Of a stretch of DNA of 64,000 nt, positions 47,895-61,000 are shown piece by piece. The DNA comes from a virus. Under the pieces are notes generated by a model. It saw only the letters and a program-made list of their open reading frames with translations, was not told the origin of the DNA and ran no database searches. The stretch covers positions 41,465 through 105,464 of the IMG/VR virus record IMGVR_UViG_3300031952_000005; one strand, written 5' to 3'. The stretch's first letter is position 1, and each line of letters begins with the position of its first letter. Position numbers and translations under genes: made by a program.

Positions 47895-49547
47895 CTAAAA
47901 TGATCCACCAGTAATAGGGTTTCTCATAACAATTTTCAACACTTTAGTTGGATCTTTTACCCAGATACTTGGCATAGTTTGAGTCATAAATACTCTATAA
48001 CCATTAAAGTTTCCAGAAGATGCAAATCCTTGAGATCTACCCATATAGTCCATAGTACCATTTTGGTAGAACCACTTCATCTCGCTATCCCATTTAAGTT
48101 TCAACAAAAAGATGTTATCATTTGTATTGTCAGTAATATCAAATACAATGAAGTTGTAAGATGATAATGGATATCCATCAATGATAGGATTTTCAATATC
48201 ATTTGTATGAACGTTGTCAAATGCAGGATTCAATACAAATTTCACATTTGCCAAGAAAGGAATTGTGTAAGATGTAAATGCAAATCCAAAGTTTAAGTCC
48301 ATTGCGTTATTACCAGTAATAGCACCAACACCAGACTTATCCATGTTTGCAACAAGTCCATTGTAAGAAGAACCTAAGTTTGCACTAAACGCTTCTTTTT
48401 TGATAGACTCATTAACCATTCTCATACCAGCCATACCCGTTTGTACAATGATTTGACGACCTGGATCTGGTCCTTTGAATTCTACTTTACCATTGTAGAA
48501 GTTGAAGATTTCTGATCTGAACAATTCTAAGTTGAAAGTAGACTTGTTGTAGATTCTCTTGAATGAGTTATCTAACTGAGACCAAAGTCCTACTGATAAT
48601 CTAATATCATCTGGACCATCTTGTTTGATTCTACCACCTTGTCCCCACATCAAGTAAGTCTCAATGTCATTTGCAACTTTTGATAAGTGAGCTGCTTCAA
48701 GGTTTGTAACAAATGAACGAGATAGATTACCATTATCATAAGATTTTTTAATCCAATCTTTACCCATTGTTTTTACCATGTCATCAATCTTAGTGATAGA
48801 TGGATCAAGGTTTTTGTCAAATGATCTCCAGATTTCAGTTACAGGAACTGTACCATCTGCATTAAGACCACCTTTCATCATCATGTCTGCACGAGATGAG
48901 ATAGAATAATGTACGTGAGCCTCAGCACCTCCAACAAAGTTGTAGTATTCTCTGAAACCATTCTGTAATTCTCCGATGTCAGAAAATTTTTCACCATATT
49001 CTCCACGAGCAGAACCTTTTCTGAAGAATTTAGTACCTGGTTTAAGGTATTTTTTGTCTAACGTAGCAGTGTTATTGTTGTTTACCAACTGTACAGTGTA
49101 GATGAAACCATCTCCTGTAGGAAGAATATCTTCTGAAGGTACAACATACAATTCAAGACCTTTGTATTTGTCATAAGTGATGATATCACCAGAACCAAAT
49201 ATACGTCTGTTGATTTTAATTTTGAACAATACTCCATCAGCTCCTAGAGCAGTTTGAGTAGGTTCTACATCTTCAACAATGTAAGGAAGATCTTGTACGA
49301 TTGGTGTTTGCCATTTGTACTCTCCACGAGCATTGTCTACCATTATGGTGTTTTTACCACCAAAAGATGCCATCTGATAAAGAGGCATTTCTACCTTTTG
49401 CGTCATTGCCCATAAGTCAACAGGTCCTAAATCCATAGGTTCTGAAGTCTTTAGCATATTTTGCAAATGGTATGAGTCTACATGCGAACTTACCTTGTAA
49501 GTTGTGTCACGCAAGAAGAGACCATTGTTTAAAACAGGTGTTGCCAT
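47895..49547 (-). CDS. Major capsid protein (crAss-like, HK97 fold)
   Basis: 550 aa after portal and scaffold; high-expression codon bias; C-terminal IWVKDPTKVLKI motif. Confidence 0.88.
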   Translation of the reverse strand: MATPVLNNGLFLRDTTYKVSSHVDSYHLQNMLKTSEPMDLGPVDLWAMTQKVEMPLYQMASFGGKNTIMVDNARGEYKWQTPIVQDLPYIVEDVEPTQTALGADGVLFKIKINRRIFGSGDIITYDKYKGLELYVVPSEDILPTGDGFIYTVQLVNNNNTATLDKKYLKPGTKFFRKGSARGEYGEKFSDIGELQNGFREYYNFVGGAEAHVHYSISSRADMMMKGGLNADGTVPVTEIWRSFDKNLDPSITKIDDMVKTMGKDWIKKSYDNGNLSRSFVTNLEAAHLSKVANDIETYLMWGQGGRIKQDGPDDIRLSVGLWSQLDNSFKRIYNKSTFNLELFRSEIFNFYNGKVEFKGPDPGRQIIVQTGMAGMRMVNESIKKEAFSANLGSSYNGLVANMDKSGVGAITGNNAMDLNFGFAFTSYTIPFLANVKFVLNPAFDNVHTNDIENPIIDGYPLSSYNFIVFDITDNTNDNIFLLKLKWDSEMKWFYQNGTMDYMGRSQGFASSGNFNGYRVFMTQTMPSIWVKDPTKVLKIVMRNPITGGSF

Positions 49548-50957: not shown

Positions 50958-53705
50958 TTACTTCTTTTTCGAAGTACTATTAGCATCATATTTGTTCTTG
51001 TTCATTGCAGCAATCTGAACTTGTTTGTCAGCAATACGTTCACGTGTTTGTAACTCTTGTGTTTGAATATTTGCTTTACGTTGTTCGTTTACTTGCTGGT
51101 TAATTTGTTTATCACGTTGCATTGATGCGTTATCATCACGTGCATTCTTTTCATCAAGATACTTTAACGTATCAATATAATCAGATTGTTTGTTCTCATC
51201 ACGATCTTGCATTGCTGTAAATCCAGCAGAACGTATCTCTGCTTCTCGTATATTGTTATCTCTATCCAGTTGATTTTGTTCTGCGTCAAATGCAAGTTTC
51301 TTATCTTGTCTTTCAGTTTCTGCTTGTTGCGCCATTTCAATACCTTGTTGTGTAGCTTGTTGTTCTTGTTGACGTTGAGCATTAACTTTCTCTTCAATTG
51401 CTTTAAGAGTATGTGTAATCTCTGCCATAGAATCTGCTTTAATAATATTACCAAGATCATAAATAGATGCACCAGCAGTATTATTAGATAATGCAAGTGA
51501 TCTTATCTGTTCAGTAATAGCACGTTGATTTACTTTTGTAGATGTAAATACATTTAACTCTCTGGACAATAATTCTGTACCATTCATTTCAAAATTTACC
51601 TTTTCATCCATTGTGGTCATATACTGCAATCTAACACTTGGTCTATTACTATGATAGTATTGTGCAAGGTCTGTACGCATCTGATGCACGCGAGGCATTA
51701 AGTGTTCACTATGTTGAACAAAGTACATTTCTGTTTGCGAGTAAGATGCATTCAATGCTTGTGTTACACCTGTTGCTGTTTCTTGTGAAGTAGGACTACC
51801 AAGACGTTGAGGTGTAAGACCTATTAGTTCAAATGCTTGTGTTTTAAAATAAGTAGATAATTGTATACGAGAAAGTAAACGTTGTGTCTGTTCTAAATTA
51901 AGTACTTGATAATGTTGGAAATTAAGAGCATTTTCTGTATTTGTAATAGAAGTATCAAGAGGTAACATTTGAAAATCTTTCATTGCTACATATGCTTTTG
52001 CAAAATTGTTTGCTCCCCAGTCTTCTCCCATAGAGTGACGTGGTAATGCATTCTGATCTAACATGATTACGGTACCTAACTCATCTACAAGAATATCAGC
52101 AATCTGATTATTAACAAGATTGTATCCTATTTGGAAAGGTTTCATCTTATCAATAAGTGATCTTGACTTAGTATTTCTATCTGAAAATACACGACCTTCT
52201 ACAGGAAGTTTGCAACCATATAAAGTAAAGTCTCCTTTGAACTGAAACTTTACAGGACCAATATTAAGGTATATTGGAGCAAATCCCGTACTGTCGTTAT
52301 TACCATAGAATGATGGTCTATTTGGTCCAATCTTAACACCACCCCACGTTTGATTGATCCATATCCAATCAATATGTTCTCCATAAAGTAAATTATCTTT
52401 TGATTTGTTTTTTAATACTGTGTTATCATATAATGGTTTATCAGTAACCTTATAATTCTCATCAATAATCATTTCTAATGGAATACCTTCTTCGTCAATT
52501 TTTGTAAGATGTCCCACCATACGTTGTGATTTCCAGTATACAGTAGTTACACGCAATAATGAATAGTTACTAAAGTCCATTAAATCTTCAGATTCATTTA
52601 GTATTCTATAAATAATATCATCACCTGTATTTAATATTGCATCTCTATGTGCAACAAATTGACGCATGCCAAGAGAAGGTCCTTCAACATTCCACTCATG
52701 AGAACGTGTAGCATCGTAGAATGAACCATCATTTTGTACACCAGGTAACATGTATCCTGCAGATTTTACTGGATATATTACTTCTAGTGCAGCAAGTTGT
52801 TCTTCATTCATCATGTATCCATACTTATCAATGATGTCAGAAATAGTCATAAGATCCATCCGACCTGCCCAGTTAGATTGAGATATATATCTTGCTTCTG
52901 GTGATTTATGATAAAAAGTTAATAGTGGATTCCATAGTTCTAATTCATAATCATCTTCGCGCATGTTAAAATGCCAAAACTCTCTATCTGTAATAAGCAT
53001 GTCTTTAAATGCAAGATTCTCAAGTTCTTTCATTGTAAAACGCTCACTATCAACTTCATGTTGATGTGACGCCCATTGTTCAATCATAGAACGATAATCT
53101 TTTTTAAAGAACTGTTCTATTTCTGGTAATGATTTTATTTTATCAGGACTCATCATTTCCTGTGCTTGTTTTGCTTGTTCAGGATCTTGCAAATCCATAC
53201 CCATTTGTTGGATTGTTTGTTGCATTTTTTGTTCACCATAATGAACAAGTGTCTCCTCAATCATGCTTCTTTTCATTTCAGCCATTTCATTGAATGACGC
53301 GTCATCTACTGCACGATATGTAATTTTATCATTACGCTTTGCAAATTCACCAGTAAGCACATTTATTACATTTGGTATAATAGGAAAGAATTTTAACTCA
53401 AACGCAGACTCGTCTTCTTTTGTAAGAGTGTCAATTAAATCTGCCATTTCATTATCTTCTTCAATCAGATAGTCAGATTTATCTATAATACCATTTGCAA
53501 GTTTGTAGTTCTTCATTAAACGTCTAGCATTACGTCTAATCATCTTCAGTCCTTGCATTTCATGCCAGTCCATATTCCATGCACCCCATGTTACATCTTT
53601 GTCTTTTGTTAACAAAAACTGAACAGGTTGGGTAATTGTACCCATTCTGTTATATTCTGATTTTGCACCACTTTTTAGTTGTAGAGCATTATATATTTTT
53701 GGCAT
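50958..53705 (-). CDS. Portal protein
   Basis: 915 aa after TerL; FFPIIPNVINVLTGEFAKR, CKLPVEG, SLIDKMKPFQIGYN, ELIGLTPQRLG; Q-rich C-terminal coiled coil. Confidence 0.9.
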   Translation of the reverse strand: MPKIYNALQLKSGAKSEYNRMGTITQPVQFLLTKDKDVTWGAWNMDWHEMQGLKMIRRNARRLMKNYKLANGIIDKSDYLIEEDNEMADLIDTLTKEDESAFELKFFPIIPNVINVLTGEFAKRNDKITYRAVDDASFNEMAEMKRSMIEETLVHYGEQKMQQTIQQMGMDLQDPEQAKQAQEMMSPDKIKSLPEIEQFFKKDYRSMIEQWASHQHEVDSERFTMKELENLAFKDMLITDREFWHFNMREDDYELELWNPLLTFYHKSPEARYISQSNWAGRMDLMTISDIIDKYGYMMNEEQLAALEVIYPVKSAGYMLPGVQNDGSFYDATRSHEWNVEGPSLGMRQFVAHRDAILNTGDDIIYRILNESEDLMDFSNYSLLRVTTVYWKSQRMVGHLTKIDEEGIPLEMIIDENYKVTDKPLYDNTVLKNKSKDNLLYGEHIDWIWINQTWGGVKIGPNRPSFYGNNDSTGFAPIYLNIGPVKFQFKGDFTLYGCKLPVEGRVFSDRNTKSRSLIDKMKPFQIGYNLVNNQIADILVDELGTVIMLDQNALPRHSMGEDWGANNFAKAYVAMKDFQMLPLDTSITNTENALNFQHYQVLNLEQTQRLLSRIQLSTYFKTQAFELIGLTPQRLGSPTSQETATGVTQALNASYSQTEMYFVQHSEHLMPRVHQMRTDLAQYYHSNRPSVRLQYMTTMDEKVNFEMNGTELLSRELNVFTSTKVNQRAITEQIRSLALSNNTAGASIYDLGNIIKADSMAEITHTLKAIEEKVNAQRQQEQQATQQGIEMAQQAETERQDKKLAFDAEQNQLDRDNNIREAEIRSAGFTAMQDRDENKQSDYIDTLKYLDEKNARDDNASMQRDKQINQQVNEQRKANIQTQELQTRERIADKQVQIAAMNKNKYDANSTSKKK

Positions 53706-53736: not shown

Positions 53737-55950
53737 TTATTTAATATTTTTAAATGGATTGTATGGTTTTCTTACTGTTTCTTTATTACCAAACATAGAC
53801 TTACCAGAAGTACCAATATGCTTAAAAGGACTCACTCTTAATTTAGCATATTTATTTGACTTTTGCAAATTATCATCTTCTCTTTCAATACGTTTGGTGT
53901 ATCCACGATTAGATTGTTGTACTTTTGCAAATGCAACTAATGCACAAAATGCTACAATTCTATCTACGTTTAATCCATCTCGATATGCTGCCATTTCTTT
54001 AAGTAACATAATATCAGGTATTCTTTCTACACCATATGTAGTTTTTACAATAGTACCATCTGTTTTTGTTTCATGATCTAACTCTTCTTCAAGAAACTGT
54101 TTACCATAAGGTATTATATTTCCTTTAAACATTGTACCTACGTTTTTCCAACCATACTCTTGAAACACATTCATATTTGCTTGTATTTCTTTTAAGAACA
54201 TAATCTGATTTTTTGGAACCAAATACTTTTGCTTTCTACGTGCAATCATGTGCTGAATAAATGCACTAACGTTATTTTCACATATTGTCCAAGCATTATA
54301 CCACTCTATTATAAGTTCGAGTCTCTCGTGCGTTTTATTTAAGTCATCAAATCTTCCACACCATGCAGCAACAATTTTGTCTCCTTCAATTGCAGATTCA
54401 ATTGTACCATCTGATTTATGTGTAGTAATTTCTTGTGATGTTTTATAAATATATATAGAACACAAAGAGTCAGAAGTATTTGTTTTACCTTCTGCAACAG
54501 GATCGACAGAACCATAATACATTCCAAAACCAGGATCTTTATGTGGTCTTTCCCATACTACTAATACTCCTTCTTTATCTTGTGTTTTTGGAGATAATGG
54601 AAACTCTGATATAGGTATTTTTTTAGATTCTTTTGCTGTAATTTTTCCAGTCTCATCACGTGATAAATCTAAAAACTCTTTGAAGTATTCTCCATCTTCA
54701 ATTCTTCTTACTTGCTGTGTAACTAAATGTAAAGGAAATACTGATTTAGTTCTATGTGCAAATGCTTCTGCAATGTTAATAGGTTTCTGAGAAATACGAA
54801 GTTGGTAGTCATCTGGTTTAAGTTTCTTTTTCCAATCAAGTCTTTCTTCAAGAATCATTTCTAATGCTCTCTCTACCTGCGAGTTACCAAATTCATCTAT
54901 GCAAGGAAGCATCGACCATTGTTCAGGAATGAACAATCCACATTGTGCAATTTCACCTTTGTCGTTTAGTAAGTTTGTTTCAACAGCTAGTACATCTTTA
55001 CTATCAGGATTCAACAACATTTCACGCAATGGTTCACATTGAGTAAGATCTCCTACAGAACCTGCTGCTATAAATTGTCCAGTATATATCATACCAGATT
55101 TCATTGCAGGAAGTAAGTATTCCATTGTCATATTCATCTTTGGAGCAATACCTGCTTCTTCATGATAAAACAATGTACAAGGTCCTCCTACACCATTAGT
55201 AGGATCTTTATCAAGTACCAATCCAAATATAACAGATTTTAATCCTATATCACGTTTTCTACCACCTTGATTGATTTCAATCTTTTGTTCCCAGTTAAGA
55301 ACTTTATCAGGTGTACACGGTCTGTACCATGCAGTGTAAGTATTAAGAAAGTTTCTATATTCTTCAAGAAAACGCCAAGTACCTTTTTCACCAATATAGT
55401 CTTTTAGTGAACCTGCCATTTTATTAATACTACCTTCTTCAAACCAGAAGTAATTTATCATTTTTGCACCATGATAATAACTAGATGCAATCTGACGTTT
55501 CTTTAATATAACAGCGTGTTTGTATAAGTGTCTTCCTATTTCTTCATAGAGTGCCATATGATACTGAGCATCTCTAACTTTTGCAAATCCATATTTTGCT
55601 TCTTCTTTATCGTAGATTGGTAAGAAGTTTAACCACATGTAGTATTCTCTTGTTAGATACCAAGATGTACTTTTGTTTTTATAAATTACACCATTTCTAC
55701 ATTTTAGTTTTTGATCGTTCCAGTAAGTGATATAGTCTTTTGAACGCAAAGGTGCTATGCAATATACTTTATTATTTTTATTAAACAGTGTAGCTTGTTC
55801 ATTAAATTTCTGAGAACACTCATCAAAGTTGTATTGACCAGGTTCTTTAAATATAGACCACATGTATTCAACAAATAATTCTCTTGTTTTAAACTCTGTT
55901 GTTGACCACACATCTGTTGCACAATCATATGTAGGTATTGTTATGTACAT
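53737..55950 (-). CDS. terL: Terminase large subunit
   Basis: Walker A-like LKKRQIASSY, Walker B LFYHEEAG, nuclease GSVDPV, CENN, NVDRIVA. Confidence 0.92.
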   Translation of the reverse strand: MYITIPTYDCATDVWSTTEFKTRELFVEYMWSIFKEPGQYNFDECSQKFNEQATLFNKNNKVYCIAPLRSKDYITYWNDQKLKCRNGVIYKNKSTSWYLTREYYMWLNFLPIYDKEEAKYGFAKVRDAQYHMALYEEIGRHLYKHAVILKKRQIASSYYHGAKMINYFWFEEGSINKMAGSLKDYIGEKGTWRFLEEYRNFLNTYTAWYRPCTPDKVLNWEQKIEINQGGRKRDIGLKSVIFGLVLDKDPTNGVGGPCTLFYHEEAGIAPKMNMTMEYLLPAMKSGMIYTGQFIAAGSVGDLTQCEPLREMLLNPDSKDVLAVETNLLNDKGEIAQCGLFIPEQWSMLPCIDEFGNSQVERALEMILEERLDWKKKLKPDDYQLRISQKPINIAEAFAHRTKSVFPLHLVTQQVRRIEDGEYFKEFLDLSRDETGKITAKESKKIPISEFPLSPKTQDKEGVLVVWERPHKDPGFGMYYGSVDPVAEGKTNTSDSLCSIYIYKTSQEITTHKSDGTIESAIEGDKIVAAWCGRFDDLNKTHERLELIIEWYNAWTICENNVSAFIQHMIARRKQKYLVPKNQIMFLKEIQANMNVFQEYGWKNVGTMFKGNIIPYGKQFLEEELDHETKTDGTIVKTTYGVERIPDIMLLKEMAAYRDGLNVDRIVAFCALVAFAKVQQSNRGYTKRIEREDDNLQKSNKYAKLRVSPFKHIGTSGKSMFGNKETVRKPYNPFKNIK

Positions 55951-58567: not shown

Positions 58568-58633
58568 TTCTTCTTCTAATGTTTGTTATTTCATACATAA
58601 ATGTATGATTTTGTACAATATACTGTACATTTG

Positions 58634-59070
58634 TGGAGGTGAGGGGAGTCGAACCCCTGTCCAAATCATGCTTCAATAATACAATTTATACAGCTTTTAG
58701 GTAATCAACTTAGTTGACGACTCCACCACTCTGTTTAATCTAACAGAGAAATCTTAAATCTTTCTTACAGCGCTCCTAAAGAATTACCTCATGGTCTGTC
58801 ATCTGTTAAGATTCAGGGTTTCTGAGAAAGATTAATTTGCGACTACTATAAACCCTTTTTCGTCAGTTAATTTAGGCTGCTATACCAGTGTAAGACTCCT
58901 CATTTAATAATGAGAATACTTTGTTCATGTTAGCTTCTACTTGTGCGTTGTCTCCTTGAGATACTACACTTAAATTTGCATTGCCATTTAATTAAATTCA
59001 CCTTAGTTTACAGTTATCTCTCTGGCTGATTGTACTACTTACTAATAACCTGTCAAAACCAGTCACCCCC
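58634..59070 (-). ncRNA. ssrA: tmRNA (437 nt)
   Basis: 5' GGGGGUGACUGGUUUUGACAGG and 3' GGACAGGGGUUCGACUCCCCUCACCUCCA; acceptor stem with G3-U70; helix-2 pairing AGUAGUACAAU/AUUGUAUUAUU; tag ORF 58872-58985 ending IAA-stop. Confidence 0.95.
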
Positions 59071-59078
59071 AGTATTAG

Positions 59079-59150
59079 TAGCGTGTTGTGGATTCGAACC
59101 ACCCCGTAGAGTTTATGAGACTCCAATGCAACCAGTTACACCTTCACGCA
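59079..59150 (-). tRNA. tRNA with CAU anticodon (Met/fMet-like)
   Basis: Anticodon arm GGAGU-CUCAUAA-ACUCU; T loop UUCGAAU; acceptor GCGUG/CACGC. Confidence 0.85.
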
Positions 59151-59324: not shown

Positions 59325-59612
59325 TTACCAAACAATTGCAACATCTCCTTCAGAGATCATCATTCTTAATGCACCACCTACCTCAAGAACTTCTGCTTGT
59401 TGTAAACCATGTGTAGGAACATATACCTTGTCGCCTACAGCAACTTCTTCTACATCCTCTCCAATAGCATACACGTCAAGTGCAGTCCATCGTTTCATTG
59501 CATCAGCATCTAGTGATGCTTCTGTTTCTGCAGACAATTCAAGTGCACTTTCTTTTTTTACAGGTTTTGTAATTAAAATCCTTCTTCCTCTTAGTTTTTT
59601 GTAATCTGACAT
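59325..59612 (-). CDS. groES: GroES-like co-chaperonin
   Basis: LRGRRILI...VYAIGEDVEEVAVGDKVYV...ISEGDVAIVW; 95 aa. Confidence 0.75.
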   Translation of the reverse strand: MSDYKKLRGRRILITKPVKKESALELSAETEASLDADAMKRWTALDVYAIGEDVEEVAVGDKVYVPTHGLQQAEVLEVGGALRMMISEGDVAIVW

Positions 59613-59855: not shown

Positions 59856-60227
59856 TTATACTTTTTTTAATTTTTTAACTGGTGTGTTTTCATCTACTCC
59901 TAGATCAATTTCAGAAGGTAGTTCAGTAATAGCAGTTGGATTATTAACCAAAATTTTATCACCTACTTTTACATTGTTTTCTACTAGTTCTGGATTGGCA
60001 TCTATATCTTCTTGAGTCACAGTGTGTTCAACTTCATTCTGAGAAGTTGGAGTTTGCATTTGTGCCATCAGAATAGTTGCTTGAGTTCTTTGTGCTTCAT
60101 TTTTTGCAATCTCCATTTGCAACACAGACAAGTCACGTCTTAATGTTGTGATTTCAATTTGCTCTTTGTACCATGCAATGATTTGTTCTTTTGAGGGCAC
60201 ATCTTGTGTTTTTGTTTTTGCGTTCAT
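59856..60227 (-). CDS. Hypothetical protein (coiled coil plus HTVTQEDIDANPEL...KVGD domain)
   Basis: First gene of the leftward unit, just downstream of a promoter. Confidence 0.65.
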   Translation of the reverse strand: MNAKTKTQDVPSKEQIIAWYKEQIEITTLRRDLSVLQMEIAKNEAQRTQATILMAQMQTPTSQNEVEHTVTQEDIDANPELVENNVKVGDKILVNNPTAITELPSEIDLGVDENTPVKKLKKV

Positions 60228-60252
60228 ATGTGTTAAGTTATTGATTACACCA

Positions 60253-60300
60253 CAAATATATAAAGAAAAGTTTAACTTTTACAAATTTATTATATATTTG
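60253..60300. promoter_or_regulatory. Divergent Bacteroidota sigma-A-type promoters
   Basis: Minus strand: TTTG (60285-60282), 21 nt, TATATTTG (60260-60253). Plus strand: TATATTTG at 60293-60300. Confidence 0.7.
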
Positions 60301-60325
60301 TAAAATAATTTTAAAACATTCTAAC

Positions 60326-60526
60326 ATGAAAACATTATTCCAGTATGCAGTTGTACTACATGAGTATGACAATGATAAAAAATATGTTGACTCAAAAGTC
60401 ATCATAGAACCTAAAACAGCATTAGCAAAATCAGAAAAAGATCTTGTGTTTAAAATTACAAGAGAGATTCCTGAAGAGTATGCAGAGAATCCTGATAACG
60501 TGCAAATCTATGTGCGAAATTTTTAG
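60326..60526 (+). CDS. Hypothetical protein (66 aa) with probable -1 frameshift extension to 60732 (~135 aa)
   Basis: Ends CGA AAT TTT TAG; the -1 frame is open 60523-60732. Confidence 0.75.
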   Translation: MKTLFQYAVVLHEYDNDKKYVDSKVIIEPKTALAKSEKDLVFKITREIPEEYAENPDNVQIYVRNF

Positions 60527-60731
60527 TAACTCCATCATGGTCTAACACTAATAATAATAGTGGTGGTGGAGTATTTAACAGACCAAATGGATTAATAGGT
60601 ACAACAGGTTTTACAGGATTACCTTATCAATCTATTACAAATGATAATCCTTTCAACACTACATTTACAAGTAGTAGTAGTGCAAATACCTATTCATTAA
60701 CAAGTGCATTGAATACAATTACAGATAAATA

Positions 60732-60944
60732 ATGGCAATAACAGTAAGATCTAAATTAGATTTTGGACAAATAGTATATATCAAAACAGATGTAGATCAG
60801 TTTCCAAAACAAGTAATAGGAGTACAAGCAACAGCAGATGGTGGAATTCTTATAAAAGTTACTACAGACGGTGAAGCAACTTGGCACTATGAGTGTGAAA
60901 TAAGTGATGAAAAAGACATCATGTTATCATTGAATAATCCATAA
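60732..60944 (+). CDS. Hypothetical protein (70 aa)
   Basis: ATG overlaps upstream TAA (TAATG); FGQIVYIKTD motif. Confidence 0.7.
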   Translation: MAITVRSKLDFGQIVYIKTDVDQFPKQVIGVQATADGGILIKVTTDGEATWHYECEISDEKDIMLSLNNP

Positions 60945-60969
60945 ATCGCATATCGCGATATGCAATATC

Positions 60970-61000
60970 AAGAACCCTGGCGTAACTGCTGGGGTTTTTT
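60970..61000 (+). terminator. Intrinsic terminator
   Basis: AACCCTGGC-GTAACT-GCTGGGGTT stem-loop followed by a T run. Confidence 0.8.

Follow-up and report, generated by a model that had tools for sequence, protein, structure and literature searches.

The stretch of DNA analysed here (the window) covers the right-hand 64 kb of an IMG/VR virus record of 105 kb. Very large open reading frames (ORFs) are found on its minus strand, as is a module of crAss-like head and terminase genes, which comprises the large terminase (53737-55950), the portal (50958-53705) and the major head protein, a 550-aa ORF at 47895-49547. A divergent intergenic region separates this module from the first gene on the plus strand, which is the subject of this paper. 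Ahead of that gene lies a promoter-like site on the plus strand, TTTACA-17-TAAAAT (60278..60306), which was found by a consensus scan only and is weak evidence, as the count of such consensus sites is not above that in shuffles. On the minus strand, inside the phage, ARAGORN reports a tmRNA (58633-59070) and a tRNA-Met (59078-59150) side by side. The 95-aa ORF at 59325-59612 on the same strand has only a weak head-morphogenesis match (phrog_931, E 0.031) and is read as GroES/gp31-like; its homolog in four related loci (L004 and L007-L009) is found about 2 kb downstream of the frameshift gene and on the same strand as that gene, and this difference in placement points to a local inversion in the window phage.

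The gene is an ORF of the plus strand (60326..60526) with a 66-aa product, and its 3' end reads CGA AAU UUU UAG. The heptamer A_AAU_UUU at 60517..60523 fits the slippery pattern X_XXY_YYZ in the 0 frame, lies where the 0 and -1 frames overlap, and is abutted by the UAG stop codon (60524..60526), which also forms the first three nucleotides of a 5-nt spacer, UAGUA (60524-60528). The -1 frame is open from 60499; beyond the heptamer it begins with UUA at 60523 and runs for 69 codons (L...K) to a TAA at 60730-60732, so that the extension with its stop occupies 60523..60732, and no ATG, GTG or TTG occurs in it until near its end. The encoded peptide is rich in Ser, Thr, Asn and Gly, is predicted to be disordered, and carries close to its C-terminus the tip NTYSLTSALN (60685..60714), whose conservation was seen in the alignment of extensions. 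The stop codon of the extension overlaps the ATG of a downstream 70-aa ORF (60732..60944, plus strand) in the form of TAATG, and a terminator-like plus-strand hairpin, CCCUGGC/GCUGGGG followed by U6 (60975..61000), which was seen by eye and not reported by the terminator scan, would close a two-gene unit. That scan flagged as terminator-like a small hairpin, CGUGCA/UGUGCG (60499-60516, plus strand), directly 5' of the AAATTTTT run; it is not conserved in the relatives and is probably due to chance.

The downstream RNA can be drawn as three stems. S1 joins ACUCCAUCA (60529..60537) to UGGUGGAGU (60564..60572) by 9 pairs including one G-U; the 5' arm of S2, UGGUCU (60538..60543), lies in the S1 loop and pairs as a pseudoknot with AGACCA (60580..60585); and S3 is a hairpin nested in the S1 loop (60546..60562), made of CACUA (60546-60550), the loop AUAAUAA and UAGUG (60558-60562). 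Since S1 abuts S2 without a single base in loop 1, the knot can form only if one terminal pair opens. The order of the elements (S1 5' arm, S2 5' arm, S3 hairpin, S1 3' arm, loop, S2 3' arm) is that of the three-stem H-type frameshifting pseudoknot which coronaviruses place about 5-6 nt after an X_XXY_YYZ site, whereas the stems in the window are shorter and AU-rich (9, 6 and 5 bp), loop 1 is empty, and the element belongs to a bacterial host and has no sequence relation to the coronaviral one.

These features had been pointed out in an earlier note on this DNA, made from the sequence alone: on direct reading its coordinates for the in-frame heptamer before the UAG, the 5-nt spacer and the three stems are all correct, and a reading-frame check likewise bore out the 69-codon -1 frame without an ATG and the TAATG overlap. 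Taken by itself, however, the window sequence is suggestive and not compelling for a frameshift. In AT-rich DNA it is not very rare for an in-frame slippery pattern to occur somewhere in an overlap of 9 codons, and by our own rough estimate the chance lies below one in ten. The minimum-energy structure found by RNAfold contains S1 and S3 (-16.2 kcal/mol, z = -1.06) and is not unusually stable, as 30 of 200 shuffles fold as well; no Rfam 15 covariance model matches 60300-61000 at E <= 1. With the fold of the single sequence being so unremarkable, the case for more than chance rests on comparison, from which it draws very strong support.

Homologous loci were searched for in viral and metagenome contigs from many samples, with the 66-aa protein and its alignments as the queries; a wide 70-sequence alignment was set aside as a seed because it was too diverse, and a locus search with a single distant protein gave no match. 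These searches recovered 36 distinct close relatives, 54-86% identical to the 66-aa protein and with viral and metagenome sequences of 73-86% identity among them, and 25 distant members with DNA, on contigs of up to 160 kb and in the 735-kb phage LR756501, which makes 61 distinct homologous loci in all, from independent metagenomes and with a GC content of 29-65%. A profile search of 1.84 billion representative proteins (E <= 0.001) further showed that the family comprises at least 327 clusters at 50% identity, and among the best 150 of these 327 clusters 114 have a C-terminus of exactly RPF (107) or RNF (7). A nucleotide search of GenBank phages with 60200-61000 returned no match, the sole tblastn match was the uncultured 735-kb phage (LR756501/LR756503), and scanning the GTDB genomes with the family alignment revealed no relative. 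The frameshift gene remains 77-83% identical while its flanking genes have diverged beyond recognition.

Conservation in homologs had been proposed as a check on the frameshift reading, and it holds, since a heptamer with a stop codon directly 3' of it was observed in 61 of 61 loci. The heptamer is AAATTTT in 32 of them, CCCTTTT in 19, CCCTTTC in four, and T, A or G followed by CCTTTY in six; the X_XXY_YYZ pattern is perfect in 55 of the 61, and the six sites with an imperfect first position, out of 29 of the Pro type, occur among distant members. NGA AAT TTT TAR forms the gene end in 32 of the 36 close relatives, while a sister clade has R-P-F instead of R-N-F, encoded by CGC CCT TTT TAA (that is, C_CCU_UUU), and the distant members have N_CCU_UUY and then a stop at once. 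Synonymous codon choice is also constrained at the shift site: the Asn codon is AAT in 32 of 32 cases against 67% elsewhere in the same genes, the Pro codon is CCT in 29 of 29 against 48%, and in 23 of these 29 the preceding Arg codon is CGC, which makes up 7% of the Arg codons elsewhere, whereas the Arg codon before AAT is NGA in all 32. Such a joint change of the Arg codon and the codon after it, by which X_XX is kept, is predicted by tandem tRNA slippage and not by constraint at the protein level.

Of the 36 close relatives, 34 have sufficient downstream DNA, and in every one of these the -1 frame is open for 45-108 codons past the stop; the 0 and +1 frames hold 3-12 stops across the same span. 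In L009 a -1 frame stop lies directly 5' of the heptamer, hence a shift into the extension is possible only on the heptamer itself. Among distant relatives the -1 frame is open for 43-197 codons, with two exceptions. In L068 (1501-1713) the family member ends ATT AAA AAA TTC TAA (KKF and the stop), the extension is absent in all frames, and the next gene begins 20 nt on, which indicates that the long form is dispensable in some lineages. L074 (1095-1320) reads CGC CCT TTT AAA TAG, and there the -1 frame is closed, the open one being a +1 frame of 68 codons whose end resembles the tip; either an assembly indel has caused this, or the variant requires a +1 or -2 shift. As a separate observation, an upstream ORF enters the domain without a stop in some members of the RPF clade (L033 and L037, 1270-1704; P0002-P0004), giving gene calls of 125-134 aa with an N-terminal addition, which may be a true fusion or a miscalled start.

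Covariation in the downstream RNA was examined in two alignments. In nine sequences from three sub-clades, aligned by MAFFT, the three stems pair in 94.6% of the cells and 8 pairs show double changes; controls with slid positions are paired in 29-54%, and no shuffle attains the observed percentage paired or covariation score. The second alignment, of 20 distinct sequences, was built with a covariance model of S1 and S3 from which S2 was left out. S1 and S3, to which it was fitted, are paired in 93.9% of the cells with compensatory changes in 8 of 13 pairs (S1 with both-sided changes in 6 of 8 counted pairs; S3 with 94% of its cells paired and 2 pairs compensatory), and S2, although the alignment was not fitted to it, is paired in 86% of the cells, 5 of its 7 pairs being compensatory. 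All three stems together are 91.3% paired with 13 double-change pairs, and at most 2 of 500 shuffles attain any of the observed measures; as the sequences are related, however, such shuffle counts overstate the significance. Other clades have wholly different sequences in the same S2 register (UUUCCAA/UUGGAAA, GGGUUA/UAACCC and GUCCAA/UUGGGC). A cruder self-versus-cross helix test gave S2 only a modest margin (14.2 vs 11.2). Over 60 loci, the stem begins 3-9 nt past the heptamer and has a median length of 8 bp, the median at 2058 control positions being 5 bp (Mann-Whitney p = 3e-24, the sequences not being independent), and a stem score of at least 18 is reached at 67% of the sites and 4.9% of the controls. 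About 7 of the 60 loci have no clear stem at the usual spacing, and the distant relatives have plain hairpins of 7-13 bp. The requirement of a stimulatory structure 5-9 nt downstream that is backed by covariation is thus fulfilled, and the pairing and compensation of S2 meet the test for an H-type three-stem topology, while the three-dimensional fold and the zero-length loop 1 fall outside that test.

These data bear on the rival explanation that we find hardest to set aside, namely that the -1 shift is real while its stimulator is only the S1/S3 hairpin with S2 unformed, or that the abutting stop and slippage of a single P-site tRNA on U_UUU are dominant. The minimum-energy fold without S2, the absence of any loop-1 nucleotide, the plain hairpins of the distant relatives, the stop that abuts the heptamer at every locus and the six sites with an imperfect first base would all agree with it. 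A hairpin alone, however, does not account for the pairing and compensation of S2 in an alignment not fitted to it, or for its unrelated sequences at the same place in other clades, and the strong preference for CGC ahead of CCT speaks for two tRNAs re-pairing. We consider this explanation unlikely, though not negligible, and take the full pseudoknot behind a tandem slippery site as the preferred reading.

The extension evolves as coding sequence. The -1 frame has a pN/pS of 0.59 within six sub-clades, compared with 0.92 and 1.00 for the two others, and substitutions at the three codon positions of the -1 frame number 259, 235 and 346, an excess at the third position. The extensions vary widely in length and composition, being rich in Ser, Thr, Asn and Gly in the window and in Gln in L071. 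The homolog in the 735-kb uncultured huge phage (L067, LR756501.1 259365-262565; 1695-2290) ends CGC CCT TTT TAA, and its -1 frame of 197 codons includes about 30 collagen-like G-X-Y triplets. Nearly all extensions finish in a short conserved peptide, which is N-[TAS]-Y-[ST]-L-T-x-A-L-N in the clade of the window and S-[YF]-[NST]-[AL]-[AST]-x-[LVI] family-wide, and which is also present, as S-[YF]-x-[AL]-[AST]-x-[LVI], in the distant RPF clade and in forms fused in frame. An open -1 frame without a start of its own and conserved as coding sequence is thereby documented by the open frame, the pN/pS values and the C-terminal motif.

The fused forms are known here from database protein sequences only. 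In P0014, P0015, P0018, P0022 and P0028 the domain, a linker and the tip follow one another in a single frame, the 99-aa P0014 ending in TYTLTSAITN and the 77-aa P0028 in YDYTLTKTL; the database proteins P0029, P0077 and P0136 likewise have a domain, a linker and a tip-like C-terminus in one frame. Their junctions (e.g. KEMFPSF) differ in sequence and are not one-base variants of the heptamer, and as far as protein sequences can tell, they suggest that recoded and constitutive long forms have repeatedly given way to each other.

An identical long protein would result if the RNA polymerase added one U in the T5 run, and T runs are indeed prone to slippage in AT-rich phages. Five T, however, fall below the length usually required for transcriptional slippage; five relatives carry CCTTTC, where the T run is only 3, and such T3-only CCU_UUC sites argue against slippage of the polymerase; nor would this process give any role to a covarying pseudoknot at the spacing typical of programmed frameshifting, and we regard it as very improbable. 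Equally small is the probability that we assign to two separate genes, the 69-codon frame being translated alone from a non-canonical start or by re-initiation after the UAG. Stops and restarts at short distance are common in phage operons, and the end of the extension itself overlaps the next start, but ATG, GTG and TTG are absent at the start of the frame in every relative and the fused homologs place both parts in one chain; moreover, re-initiation needs no X_XXY_YYZ, and it leaves unexplained both the joint change of the Arg and the Asn or Pro codons and the conserved stem 5 nt downstream. An assembly or sequencing indel in the A3T5 run, which would make the real gene one continuous ORF of 135 codons, can be practically ruled out, for even though the break falls in a short homopolymer run and in-frame fused relatives exist, the same layout of stop and frame recurs, around either of two heptamers and with any of three stop codons, in 61 distinct sequences that go back to many independent samples and assemblers, and the fused junctions are not one-base variants.

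In about 15 of 33 relatives the extension ends at most 11 nt from the next start or overlaps it (TAATG, ATGA), a proximity that is normal operon packing and fits a translated -1 frame. It was also proposed that the shift may gate translation of the coupled downstream gene, and this receives only weak support: the proximity of stop and start speaks for it, whereas the downstream gene varies among the relatives, being a thioredoxin, a zinc-ribbon protein or the 70-aa ORF of the window. For the latter a single homolog was found, and it is not behind a frameshift gene. As the downstream gene differs in this way, coupled gating is possible locally and is not a conserved purpose.

The 66-aa domain was modelled by AlphaFold2 with 26 homologs at a pLDDT of 93, as a beta-hairpin, a helix, a short helix and a strand. 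No family could be assigned to it: Pfam and PHROG gave no match for the domain, the extension or 70 family members; Foldseek found nothing significant for the model of the N-terminal domain (best E 0.39 in the PDB and 0.057 in BFVD); the best hit of a wide VIA fold search of the same domain (Z 6.3) is within the stated noise range; and its neighbours in the ESM Atlas are viral hypothetical proteins only. Two weak leads, one to RNA polymerase epsilon/YkzG and one to phi29 p6, were not borne out by any sequence profile. In the AlphaFold2 model of a natural fused form, the tail is undocked and predicted to be disordered (pLDDT about 50), so nothing indicates that the tip folds back onto the domain it is attached to.

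A hint of function comes from gene context. The nameable neighbours in close relatives are RecA-like, a kinase-like ATPase, MazG-like, PhoH and thioredoxin, and those in the complete genomes of distant members are SbcC-like, GroEL, a RuvC-like resolvase, ribonucleotide reductase, endonuclease VII and a clamp-loader-like ATPase. From this context we infer a probable role of the protein in the DNA metabolism of the phage, be it replication, recombination or the metabolism of nucleotides. A crAss-type capsid gene is detectable in only one of five other family genomes, so the family is not confined to crAss-like phages. The statement of the earlier note that the gene has no recognisable tail-chaperone role agrees with the lack of a Pfam or PHROG match and with the position of the relatives' gene among genes of DNA metabolism, and by the same evidence the test for a tail assembly chaperone of the G/GT type is not met. 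A capsid extension of the T7 10A/10B type fails likewise, the major head protein being encoded by the ORF at 47895-49547 instead. The possibility that the tip is an FxxA-type peptide which binds a RecA-like recombinase was considered, a RecA-like gene lying near the L009 gene, and was dropped; such a gene was found in only one of five other family genomes, and weakly. A role as head fibre or decoration, hinted at by the collagen-like extension of the huge phage, is unsupported by gene context.

Features of the system have counterparts elsewhere. In E. coli dnaX, a heptamer and a downstream structure direct a -1 frameshift which sets a fixed ratio of tau to gamma, two forms of a protein of DNA replication, the shift there leading to truncation. 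The gene described here would share with dnaX a bacterial-type -1 frameshift and two forms of which, as we propose, only one has a partner-binding C-terminal part; it differs in that the shift extends the product, that the proteins are not homologous, and that a role in replication rests on gene context only. Bacterial SSB consists of a folded domain, a disordered linker and a conserved C-terminal tip, and the long form of the present family similarly combines a small conserved domain, a linker free in length (45-197 residues) and composition, and a conserved tip. Its domain is, however, beta-beta-alpha-beta according to AlphaFold2 and not an OB fold, its tip is not acidic, its tail is added by recoding, and DNA binding has not been shown.

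Known cases in phages mainly concern tail chaperones, with some in capsid, lysin, polymerase and other genes (the PRFect paper, PMC10885494). One of them is the G/GT frameshift of the tail assembly chaperone in lambda and other long-tailed phages (Xu et al. 2004, described in PMC10885494). Both there and, by inference, here a conserved -1 shift near the end of a small gene gives a rarer, C-terminally extended form with a shared N-terminal domain, at a position conserved across very divergent sequences; in contrast, the present family has no chaperone homology and is not beside tail tube or tape-measure genes, and its heptamer is abutted by the stop and followed by a pseudoknot. C-terminal extensions by frameshifting have also been described for gene 10A/10B of T7 and the major head protein of Lactobacillus phage A2 (PMC355979, cited in PMC10885494). 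In these, as is inferred for the window, a -1 shift in the last codons provides a fraction of the molecules with a C-terminal tail, whereas the window gene is not a capsid gene, encodes only 66 aa, and adds a disordered linker with a conserved terminal peptide. Our literature search found no paper on frameshifting in Crassvirales or on this gene family. The mechanism is a textbook one; what is new is the gene family with its breadth, together with the combination of a stop-abutting heptamer and a tip-bearing disordered extension.

In the absence of proteomic, ribosome-profiling or reporter evidence, we judge from comparative sequence data that a real programmed -1 frameshift is highly probable; all the comparative tests that were run support the earlier reading of a shift at this heptamer with a three-stem pseudoknot. 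The slippage itself, which is inferred, would proceed as follows. A ribosome translating the 66-codon gene would reach A_AAU_UUU with tRNA-Asn and tRNA-Phe bound, at which point the pseudoknot 5 nt downstream, with its 9-bp S1, the nested S3 and the S2 formed from the S1 loop, would resist unwinding. Some ribosomes may then slip back by one base, so that AAU UUU is re-read as AAA UUU, and these would read UUA in place of UAG and go on for 69 codons, while the unslipped ones would terminate at once on the abutting stop. The RNA would thus set the ratio of the two proteins, the long form being presumably the rarer, and the efficiency of the shift is likewise a matter of inference. The two products that had been predicted, of 66 and 135 aa with the junction ...NF|LVTPSW, are supported by comparison and have no evidence at the protein level. 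The 66-aa product would be the folded domain only, and the 135-aa product would add to it a disordered tether rich in Ser, Thr, Asn and Gly and the conserved peptide NTYSLTSALN, whose docking on a conserved partner is inferred as well. The ratio of short to long form may in this way set the number of tether-carrying subunits, as in dnaX tau/gamma.

A more far-reaching hypothesis, which we put forward tentatively and hold to be rather doubtful as a whole, is that recoding is the normal mode of expression in the entire family, from crAss-like phages to the 735-kb phage, that it fixes the stoichiometry of tailless and tailed subunits, and that the tip S-[YF]-x-A-[AST]-x-L tethers a conserved replication or recombination partner. 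If this were true, it would constitute a second broadly conserved frameshift system of phages beside the tail chaperone G/GT.

Conserved frameshifts in DNA phages are known mainly from the tail chaperone and from a few capsid genes, and the gene in the window is of a different kind. Frameshifting appears to be the rule in this large family, which was found only in uncultured phages of very different GC. Automatic annotation misses the long form, leaving about 200 nt that appear to be non-coding, and gene callers in this way under-report the proteome of environmental phages. The compact three-stem pseudoknot of bacterial type is offered for mechanistic study, and the partner of the tip, if found, could reveal how the ratio of subunits is set in a complex of phage DNA metabolism.
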